Shown: positions 13,565-14,475 of the stretch, piece by piece
How positions within the stretch are numbered: position 1 is the stretch's first letter
Layout of the letters: each line of letters opens with the position of its first letter
DNA from: a phage
Assembly: GCA_037574385.1 (NCBI GenBank)
Contig: GCA_037574385.1_4529.1
Reading direction: 5' to 3' (one strand)
DNA length: 64,000 nucleotides
Notes under the pieces: generated by a model
Told to the model about the DNA's origin: nothing
Databases searched by the model: none
Seen by the model: the letters and a program-made list of their open reading frames with translations, nothing else
Made by a program: the position numbers and the translations under genes

Positions 13565-13617
13565 TAAGCCTTGCGGCAACCTTGTCGGGGTTCCACCTGC
13601 TAAGGCAAGTGTTTGTA

Positions 13618-13708
13618 CGAAACGCCGGGATTCGAACCCGGTTATTAAGCAGTTGACGCTACTCAATATTTTTAAAAGGCCATATCTCGACCATATCCGA
13701 ACGTTCCG
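13618..13708 (-). ncRNA. tRNA-like or small stable RNA (canonical T-arm; no clean cloverleaf found)
   Basis: Minus-strand CCGGG-UUCGAAU-CCCGG T-arm and a pairable 7-bp acceptor-like stem 91 nt apart; D and anticodon arms not resolved. Confidence 0.25.
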
Positions 13709-13876
13709 TCAAAAACGCTACTCGGCTTACGGCAAAGATATTTCCTCGAATCGATAATTCTGTGCGCCGTTTCTGCTGTGATGTAAGGGGATATTAACAA
13801 ATCGTAAAGATTTATTAAGACCAGTCCTTACTCAGGGAACATCAGTCCGACGACTTGCCGGTAGCGACCCGGCTTC

Positions 13877-14221
13877 TTATTTTGACATATCATCAATTTG
13901 TTCTCTACGTCTACGCCATAGATTAATTACTTCATCAACACATTCAGCGTTTGATATATGACGGCAATAATATAATGATTCGCGTTTCTGGAACCGATGT
14001 TGCAATGGGATTTCGTTTAAAAGGTCTTTACGGTCAAAGTATTCAAAACTAGTTAACCCGGAACGATTTTTAATGAACTTCCAATGACCGAATTCATTTT
14101 GAACATAGATGTAATCGGCATGTTGATAAAGTGAATTAATCAATCGGTCTGAAATAACTGTATCATGTTCGTTAAAATAAAACGTTAAATCATGAACTAC
14201 TAAATAGACATTACCTTTCAT
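13877..14221 (-). CDS. Hypothetical protein embedded in the tRNA cluster (start at MKGNVYLVV; ORF-track start would overlap tRNA-Arg)
   Basis: ORF between tRNA-Arg and the stable-RNA region; no nuclease motif recognised. Confidence 0.4.
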   Translation of the reverse strand: MKGNVYLVVHDLTFYFNEHDTVISDRLINSLYQHADYIYVQNEFGHWKFIKNRSGLTSFEYFDRKDLLNEIPLQHRFQKRESLYYCRHISNAECVDEVINLWRRRREQIDDMSK

Positions 14222-14239
14222 ATTTTCCTCACTTATAAT

Positions 14240-14316
14240 TGGTCGAGACAGAAGGATTCTAACCTTCAACCTACGGATTAGAAGTCCGTTGCTCTATACA
14301 ATTGAGCTATGCCTCG
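14240..14316 (-). tRNA. tRNA-Arg (anticodon UCU), CCA encoded
   Basis: Hand-folded cloverleaf: acceptor CGAGGCA/UGUCUCG, D-stem GCUC/GAGC, anticodon stem ACGGA/UCCGU with loop CUUCUAA, T-arm GAAGG-UUAGAAU-CCUUC. Confidence 0.7.
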
Positions 14317-14322
14317 AATATA

Positions 14323-14396
14323 TGACCCAGACCAGATTCGAACTGGTAACCTTTCCCTTATGAGGGGACTGCTGCTAACCGTTGAGCTACAGGGCC
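14323..14396 (-). tRNA. tRNA with anticodon CAU (Ile2-type or Met), CCA not encoded
   Basis: Acceptor GGCCCUG/CUGGGUC (one U-U mismatch), anticodon loop CUCAUAA, T-arm ACCAG-UUCGAAU-CUGGU; lies 6 nt upstream of tRNA-Arg. Confidence 0.55.
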
Positions 14397-14475
14397 TAAA
14401 TAACTTTCTATTATGAAAGGCACTTTAGAGCACCTTTGGTAATAGAGGGTATGAATTAATAATATCACATAATTC

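Follow-up and report, generated by a model that had tools for sequence, protein, structure and literature searches.

Two stable RNAs encoded at the end of the transfer RNA (tRNA) operon of phage T4, species 1 and species 2, have been known for about fifty years, since the 1970s. T4 transcription runs through the entire tRNA cluster and stops after the species I gene, and its primary transcript gives rise to the tRNAs as well as to the species I and II RNAs (PMC2330249), both of which have been detected in infected cells by Northern blot (PMC9697503). In the T4T record, the genes follow one another in the order tRNA-Ile, segB, tRNA-Arg, rnaD ("species 2 RNA," 119 nucleotides [nt]), rnaC ("species 1 RNA," 139 nt) and e.8. 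Here, we analyzed a 64,000-nt stretch of phage DNA (NCBI GenBank assembly GCA_037574385.1, contig GCA_037574385.1_4529.1), referred to below as the window. Homology identifies a noncoding segment of its reduced tRNA operon as the orthologs of rnaD and rnaC, two genes already known from T4, and we describe a comparative fold of rnaC that has been maintained across T4-like genera.

Over 348 nt, the noncoding segment shares 93.4% identity with the stretch that is annotated in T4 as rnaD and rnaC. A blastn search with positions 13530-13880 (minus strand) matched ∼800 T4-like phage genomes, and in T4T the match falls under the rnaC and rnaD features, from which we transferred the ends of both genes by alignment. 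Each RNA folds better than all of its 200 shuffled counterparts, with z = −4.55 for rnaC (13616-13754) and z = −3.55 for rnaD (13761-13881). The original prediction, made from the sequence alone, had noticed here ∼300 base pairs (bp) of structured noncoding sequence containing a canonical T arm without a full cloverleaf, and had proposed either a degenerate tRNA or a stable RNA like species 1/2. The structured sequence and the isolated T arm, which lies in no tool's tRNA call, are both borne out; the stable RNA is the half of the proposal that holds, through the identity to T4 rnaD/rnaC, and the degenerate tRNA is the half that fails. An Rfam search at gathering threshold returned two tRNAs and no other family in the window, with rnaC and rnaD unmatched by any Rfam 15 family, and a repeat search around the locus gave nothing relevant.

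The window represents an RB69-like Mosigvirus, and all features discussed here lie on its minus strand. Escherichia phage RB69 (NC_004928, 73943-75045) matches region 13400-14500 at 95.7% identity, and other Mosigviruses reach up to 97.8%. In the same interval, the RB69 record annotates tRNA-Met(CAU), tRNA-Arg(UCU) and RB69ORF150c and leaves the gap between ORF150c and ORF149c blank; its neighboring genes are RB69ORF151c, tRNA.2-tRNA.4 and ipI upstream, and RB69ORF149c and e.8 downstream. Positions 13538-14396 very probably comprise a whole reduced T4-type tRNA operon, made up of tRNA-Ile(CAU), tRNA-Arg(UCU), ORF150c, rnaD, rnaC, a trailer and an intrinsic terminator, every part of which is identified by homology (Table 1).

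We collected rnaC homologs from Tequatrovirus, Mosigvirus, Gaprivervirus VR7, Moonvirus, Karamvirus and Kanagawavirus, and further homologs from Winklervirus, Gelderlandvirus, Marfavirus and IMG/VR contigs. Our covariance model (R1) scores the rnaC of the window at 166.4 bits (E = 4.6e-41), and RNAalifold run on 10 rnaC sequences returned a four-way junction with compensatory changes at 25 of 44 pairs. Covariation was then quantified on 22 distinct sequences, drawn from at least seven phage genera and aligned with a covariance model, using as controls pairing partners slid by 1-3 columns and 500 shuffles. Standard pairs fill 96.0% of cells, compared with 38-44% in the slid controls, and double changes occur at 29 of the 48 pairs, compared with 4-7; none of the 500 shuffles reached the observed values. 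The fold that evolution has maintained in rnaC is a four-way junction shaped like a tRNA. Its acceptor-like stem is stacked on a canonical T arm, and where a tRNA has its D and anticodon arms, rnaC has a long arm and a 10-bp arm whose loops are complementary. The acceptor-like stem (CGAUUCG/CGUUUCG) spans seven positions, with two conserved U-U mismatches and an A-U to G-C swap, and the 5-bp T stem shows a G-C to U-A compensatory swap; these two stems (helices 1 and 8) are 100% paired, with one compensatory pair each. The long arm, of ∼70 nt, has its sequence wholly replaced in some genera with its helices preserved, and the third arm consists of the 10-bp stem closed by an invariant 6-nt loop.

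This pattern of substitution bears on whether the segment instead encodes small proteins, as the "hypothetical protein" coding sequences (CDSs) of many records imply. Mechanical open reading frames (ORFs) of 42 and 61 amino acids do overlap it on the minus strand, and numerous records place CDSs there. However, the substitutions obey base pairing, with compensatory double changes at 29 pairs, arms are replaced by unrelated sequences of which only the helices are kept, and T4 makes stable RNAs from this segment (PMC9697503). We therefore consider a coding role highly improbable.

The same alignment speaks to the origin of the tRNA-like features. A decayed tRNA gene, left behind as an eight-tRNA cluster of the T4 type was reduced, would leave a perfect T arm, an acceptor-like stem and a weak tRNA-Sec match such as the one we observe (13617-13709; 16.6 bits, E = 3.6, gathering score 47), and the cluster is indeed reduced relative to T4. 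Yet T4, with all eight of its tRNAs, has the same element at 137 of 139 positions, annotated as a stable RNA; because a phage with the full tRNA set carries it, the element is not a product of cluster reduction. Moreover, the arms that have no tRNA counterpart are rich in compensatory changes across genera, which a pseudogene would not keep. Decay is scarcely credible on these grounds, and the phrase "tRNA-like remnants" in the original prediction has to be abandoned in favor of strongly conserved RNAs with covariation in non-tRNA arms. The T-arm region itself drew no ARAGORN call and no match to RF00005.

Public records suggest yet another identity for the 3′ 94 nt of rnaC, that of a genuine tRNA with a long arm. 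A "tRNA-Lys(ttt)" is called over this sequence in the G2133 and G29 records, and an 8-bp stem, ACGGAACG/CGUUUCGU, can be drawn for it in the window. Neither ARAGORN nor Rfam makes such a call in the window, however, and the ACGGAACG/CGUUUCGU stem shows no compensatory change, with one pair broken in 12 of the 22 sequences and another in 7. The acceptor of full-length rnaC is, by contrast, 100% paired with a compensatory swap, and the would-be anticodon arm is the 10-bp stem with its 6-nt loop. A lysine tRNA is accordingly given almost no credence here, the 94-nt candidate being ruled out by the pair counts.

The hexamers UUGACG, at the tip of the long arm, and CGUCAA, in the loop of the 10-bp arm, are exact complements, and both are invariant while the stems below them vary freely. 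We tested the central four loop-loop pairs (UGAC/GUCA) and found them 100% paired in the 22 sequences. In a Marfavirus-like clade, the two loops change together to UUGGCG and CGCCAA, replacing an A-U pair with G-C. We regard this as a lead that the loops may form a kissing contact, intramolecular or possibly intermolecular.

Resemblance to tRNA is partial elsewhere in the molecule. The rnaC covariance model cross-matches genuine tRNAs at 12-30 bits, and the tail that follows the acceptor-like stem reads U-ACA in most copies and U-CCA in the Marfavirus-like ones. An exact-pattern scan for the rnaC 3′ module in 185,579 bacterial and archaeal species genomes found no match, and a loose gapped pattern run on IMG/VR gave mostly chance matches, from which covariance-model filtering retained four more true copies. 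Genes for tRNAs flank rnaC directly on both sides in Moonvirus, Karamvirus, Winklervirus and Gelderlandvirus.

In rnaD, a leader of 8 nt precedes two hairpins: the first has a 5-bp stem and a 7-nt loop, and the second is long, its base conserved and its tip variable. The same architecture recurs in eight homologs that carry three unrelated apical sequences. Homologs of rnaD are confined to the coliphage genera Tequatrovirus, Mosigvirus, Gaprivervirus and Dhakavirus. The stop codon of ORF150c (TAA, 13879..13877) sits within the 5′ leader of rnaD. A terminator-like site on the plus strand (13857-13873), flagged by a consensus terminator scan, consists of the reverse complement of the rnaD 5′ hairpin with a T-rich run after it; it is probably incidental, having no obvious plus-strand gene to end, and we disregarded it.

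Records of related phages label these genes unevenly. They often call rnaC or rnaD "hypothetical protein" CDSs or a 94-nt "tRNA-Lys(ttt)," and few records (T4T, GiZh, RB33 and Kha5h) annotate either gene. In Dhakavirus, rnaD is joined straight to the trailer that otherwise follows rnaC (…GGCGCACCGAACACTTGCC…), a clean absence of rnaC. VR20 has an ORF in place of rnaC, and the related VR7 keeps the gene.

Recent work links phage tRNA regions to escape from tRNA-targeting defenses. Drawing on the T4 literature, we propose that a single precursor would start at a promoter upstream of the tRNAs and end at the operon terminator, and that host tRNA-processing nucleases would cut it into tRNAs, a messenger RNA (mRNA) and two stable RNAs. 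Conjecturally, the acceptor/T-arm module would make rnaC a substrate of the tRNA maturation machinery, which would set its ends and keep it stable, and the loop-loop contact would lock the two long arms into a compact fold. Acting in trans, rnaC might then mimic a tRNA without decoding, binding or titrating a protein that recognizes tRNAs, such as a host nuclease directed against tRNAs or an enzyme of tRNA processing or modification. This mechanism for rnaC is weakly supported. That rnaC, present in at least seven T4-like genera, is a widespread phage-specific tRNA mimic serving as an RNA-based counter-defense or host-takeover factor is quite unlikely in our estimate.

The chief rival, possible though doubtful, holds that rnaD and rnaC are cis-acting punctuation with no function in trans, which would shield the tRNAs and the ORF150c mRNA against 3′ exonucleases, guide cuts by RNase E or RNase P, and persist only as stable by-products. 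Both RNAs are always found at or inside tRNA operons, the position of the ORF150c stop inside the rnaD leader makes rnaD the immediate 3′ flank of the mRNA, and each RNA is dispensable in some lineages, since one occurs without the other. On the other hand, a protective hairpin needs no 139-nt four-way junction with loops conserved across at least seven genera, and in Karamvirus and Moonvirus rnaC stands between tRNAs, with no mRNA to protect. A convergent single-nucleotide polymorphism in rnaD, acquired by a T4-like phage as it adapted to a host (PMC12685909), also counts against punctuation and for a role in trans.

Sequence identity to T4 differs along the locus. It amounts to 93.4% in the rnaD-rnaC-terminator block (13535-13882) and 91% in the e.8 block (12385-12836), compared with 72-82% in other neighboring segments, a pattern that points to selection at the RNA level, to a recent exchange between the Tequatrovirus and Mosigvirus lineages, or to both. 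Several observations weigh against our reading of rnaC and rnaD as selected RNAs, one of them a tRNA mimic. Recent recombination, rather than selection, could account for part of the high identity to T4, as the e.8 block also stands at 91%. rnaC is absent from VR20 and Dhakavirus, both of which have rnaD, and rnaD is absent from Karamvirus, Moonvirus and others that have rnaC. Of 18 homologs, the two Winklervirus-like copies have a T loop that departs from the canonical one, reading GUGCAUC or GUGCAUGC on a T stem that is kept; strict tRNA mimicry is weakened by these copies. Evidence for the kissing contact comes down to one co-varying position in one clade, and so to a single event in evolution. 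Accumulation as discrete stable RNAs has been shown for T4, and the RNA ends given for the phage of the window are transferred from T4; the roles of the species 1/2 RNAs are stated as unknown in the literature (PMC3014915; PMC12685909; also PMC9697503). Our literature search for rnaC and rnaD function returned only statements of this kind, which is why we present the mimic or decoy role as conjecture.

For the window, the analysis corrects the annotation: genomes of the RB69 type carry genes for the species 1/2 RNAs that are mostly left blank or mislabeled in GenBank. If rnaC is indeed a mimic, its covariation-based fold would be the first comparative structural model of this RNA and a basis for a new RNA family. 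The fold, with its complementary loops, also gives concrete mutants to test.

Table 1. Features of the reduced tRNA operon, listed in the direction of transcription (positions are those of the 64,000-nt window)
Feature	Position	Strand	Basis or remark
tRNA(CAU)	14323..14396	−	ARAGORN; Rfam tRNA 52.4 bits; no encoded CCA
tRNA-Arg(UCU), reads AGA	14240..14316	−	ARAGORN; Rfam 71.1 bits; CCA encoded
RB69ORF150c, 114 amino acids plus stop, PHROG 3355	13877..14221	−	ATG at 14221; GAGG 5 nt upstream; TAA 13879..13877
rnaD homolog	13761..13881	−	∼89% identical to T4 rnaD
rnaD-rnaC spacer, 6 nt, GAAUUA (T4: AAAUUA)	13755..13760	−	Alignment
rnaC homolog, 139 nt	13616..13754	−	137/139 identical to T4 rnaC
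UUGACG, tip of rnaC long arm	13707..13712	−	Complementary to loop 13658..13653
CGUCAA, loop of rnaC 10-bp arm	13653..13658	−	Partner in proposed kissing contact
T arm CCGGG-UUCGAAU-CCCGG, nt 114-130 of rnaC	13625..13641	−	Sequence and fold
3′ trailer, conserved, small hairpins	13566..13615	−	Between rnaC and terminator; kept directly after rnaD in Dhakavirus
Intrinsic operon terminator, hairpin + UUUUU	13538..13565	−	Fold; homologous site ARNold-annotated in PhAPEC2 and G2133

Upstream of the two stable RNAs, the operon encodes two tRNAs. ARAGORN, run on the whole 64 kb, called no tRNA beyond tRNA-Arg(tct) and tRNA(cat), and a permissive Rfam scan of 13400-14500 (E up to 10) added only noise and no extra tRNA. 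The original prediction had counted the same two, against eight in T4, and both counts agree with our results: neither program found a missed tRNA or assigned the T arm to a standard one, and the homologous T4 cluster contains eight. The CAU tRNA is identical at 72 of 74 positions to the T4T feature "tRNA-Ile; isoleucyl-tRNA," and because of this identity we read it, from sequence, as the ortholog of T4 tRNA-Ile (AUA-reading, of the Ile2 type, in which C34 is modified) rather than as a tRNA-Met. Its labels differ between records, being tRNA-Met in RB69 and tRNA-Ile in ChristianSchoenbein. tRNA-Arg cannot be aligned to the tRNA-Arg of T4 but closely resembles its counterparts in VR20 and CHI14, and it belongs to another sequence lineage than T4's own.

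No sense codons are rarer in E. coli than AGA and AUA. The long ORFs of the window use them at 8.1 (AGA) and 13.8 (AUA) per 1000 codons, amounting to 18% of Arg codons and 19% of Ile codons, respectively. Heavy use by the phage of codons that are so rare in E. coli offers a simple reason for the retention of the tRNAs for AGA and AUA.

The loops of tRNA-Arg are unusual. Its T loop reads UUAGAAU, with A at the usual C56, and its D loop, AAUUGUAUA, lacks the usual GG. Together, the two changes could replace the G19-C56 elbow pair with U19-A56. The tRNA-Arg of VR20 shares both loop changes, and that of CHI14 keeps the canonical GG and C56. The T-loop change also disrupts the recognition core of the homing endonuclease SegB, GGTTCRANTCC (PMC2330249). 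This core has one match in the 64-kb window, GGTTCGAATCC at 13628-13638 on the minus strand, which falls in the T arm of rnaC, and neither tRNA matches it. The rnaC T arm could be a preferred cut site during co-infection with a segB-carrying phage.

The protein gene between tRNA-Arg and rnaD was correctly proposed in the original prediction as an ORF at this position that does not resemble segB; it encodes 114 amino acids followed by a stop codon. Its homology search, called for at the time, led to RB69ORF150c (PHROG 3355), with relatives in 426 phage records at 30-98% identity and no functional family. Searches of Pfam, NCBIfam and PADLOC returned no family for it, and no fold match pointed to a function; the Pfam profile DUF2654 scored 20.7 bits, below its cut-off of 25, over residues 86-112 only. 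Comparison with T4 SegB gave a BLASTP E of 0.21, and no GIY-YIG match was found in Pfam or NCBIfam, so that by sequence the two proteins are unrelated. Conserved residues (GHW.F.K.R, DLL and W) and a confident-enough AlphaFold2 model, with a predicted local distance difference test score (pLDDT) of 76.7, support ORF150c as a real protein. In many Tequatroviruses, ORF150c occupies the same slot, after tRNA-Arg and directly before rnaD, and the whole tRNA-Arg/ORF150c/rnaD/rnaC module is likewise present in many of them, for example R5505. ORF150c follows tRNA-Arg and tRNA-Leu in Winklervirus CHI14, and tRNA-Met in Karamvirus vB_VIPECLOM01.

At the end of the operon, a scan with a consensus terminator model did not list the terminator at 13565..13538, the stem of which has internal mismatches. 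Beyond it, ORF149c (12884-13447) lies within a segment of ∼12835-13537 with a terminator of its own, and looks like an inserted cassette. In T4, the sequence found here after this second terminator, GGGCTTTTTGGTATCTAGGCCTTTCC (12860..12835), comes immediately after the rnaC terminator. The ORF149c slot holds a further or different ORF in PhAPEC2 and R5505, and genomes of the phiC120 type have an insertion of ∼545 bp inside the matched interval.

Compared with canonical tRNA (RF00005), rnaC is alike in having an acceptor-like stem continuous with the T stem, a UUCGAAU loop and a location in a tRNA operon. It differs in lacking a D arm, in place of which it has the ∼70-nt arm, and in having the 10-bp stem with a 6-nt loop instead of a 5-bp stem with a 7-nt anticodon loop; its acceptor stem contains two U-U mismatches, most copies lack an encoded CCA, and tRNA models miss it.

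Among the closest described systems is the T4 operon itself, which reads Gln-Leu-Gly-Pro-Ser-Thr-Ile-segB-Arg-rnaD-rnaC, with eight tRNAs compared with two in the window. The two operons share tRNA.2-4 and ipI upstream, e.8 downstream, their orientation, the Ile tRNA, rnaD, rnaC and the terminator. Six tRNAs and segB are absent from the window, where tRNA-Arg precedes ORF150c rather than following segB, and where the terminator is followed by the extra ORF149c cassette. rnaD lies immediately upstream of rnaC in both phages, with a 6-nt spacer, and has the same leader, 5′ hairpin and long-hairpin base; the apical part of the long hairpin differs, and the 3′ end is CACA here and CACC in T4. The 5′ end of T4 rnaD abuts the CCA of tRNA-Arg, whereas here it abuts, and through its leader overlaps, the ORF150c stop codon, and the junction of the rearrangement is therefore placed exactly at the 5′ end of rnaD. 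rnaC, annotated in T4 as 139-140 nt and left without annotation in the RB69 record, is in both phages on the same strand, carries the same T arm and is the last RNA before the operon terminator; only two substitutions separate the two copies, one of which turns a U-A pair of the 10-bp arm into U-G.

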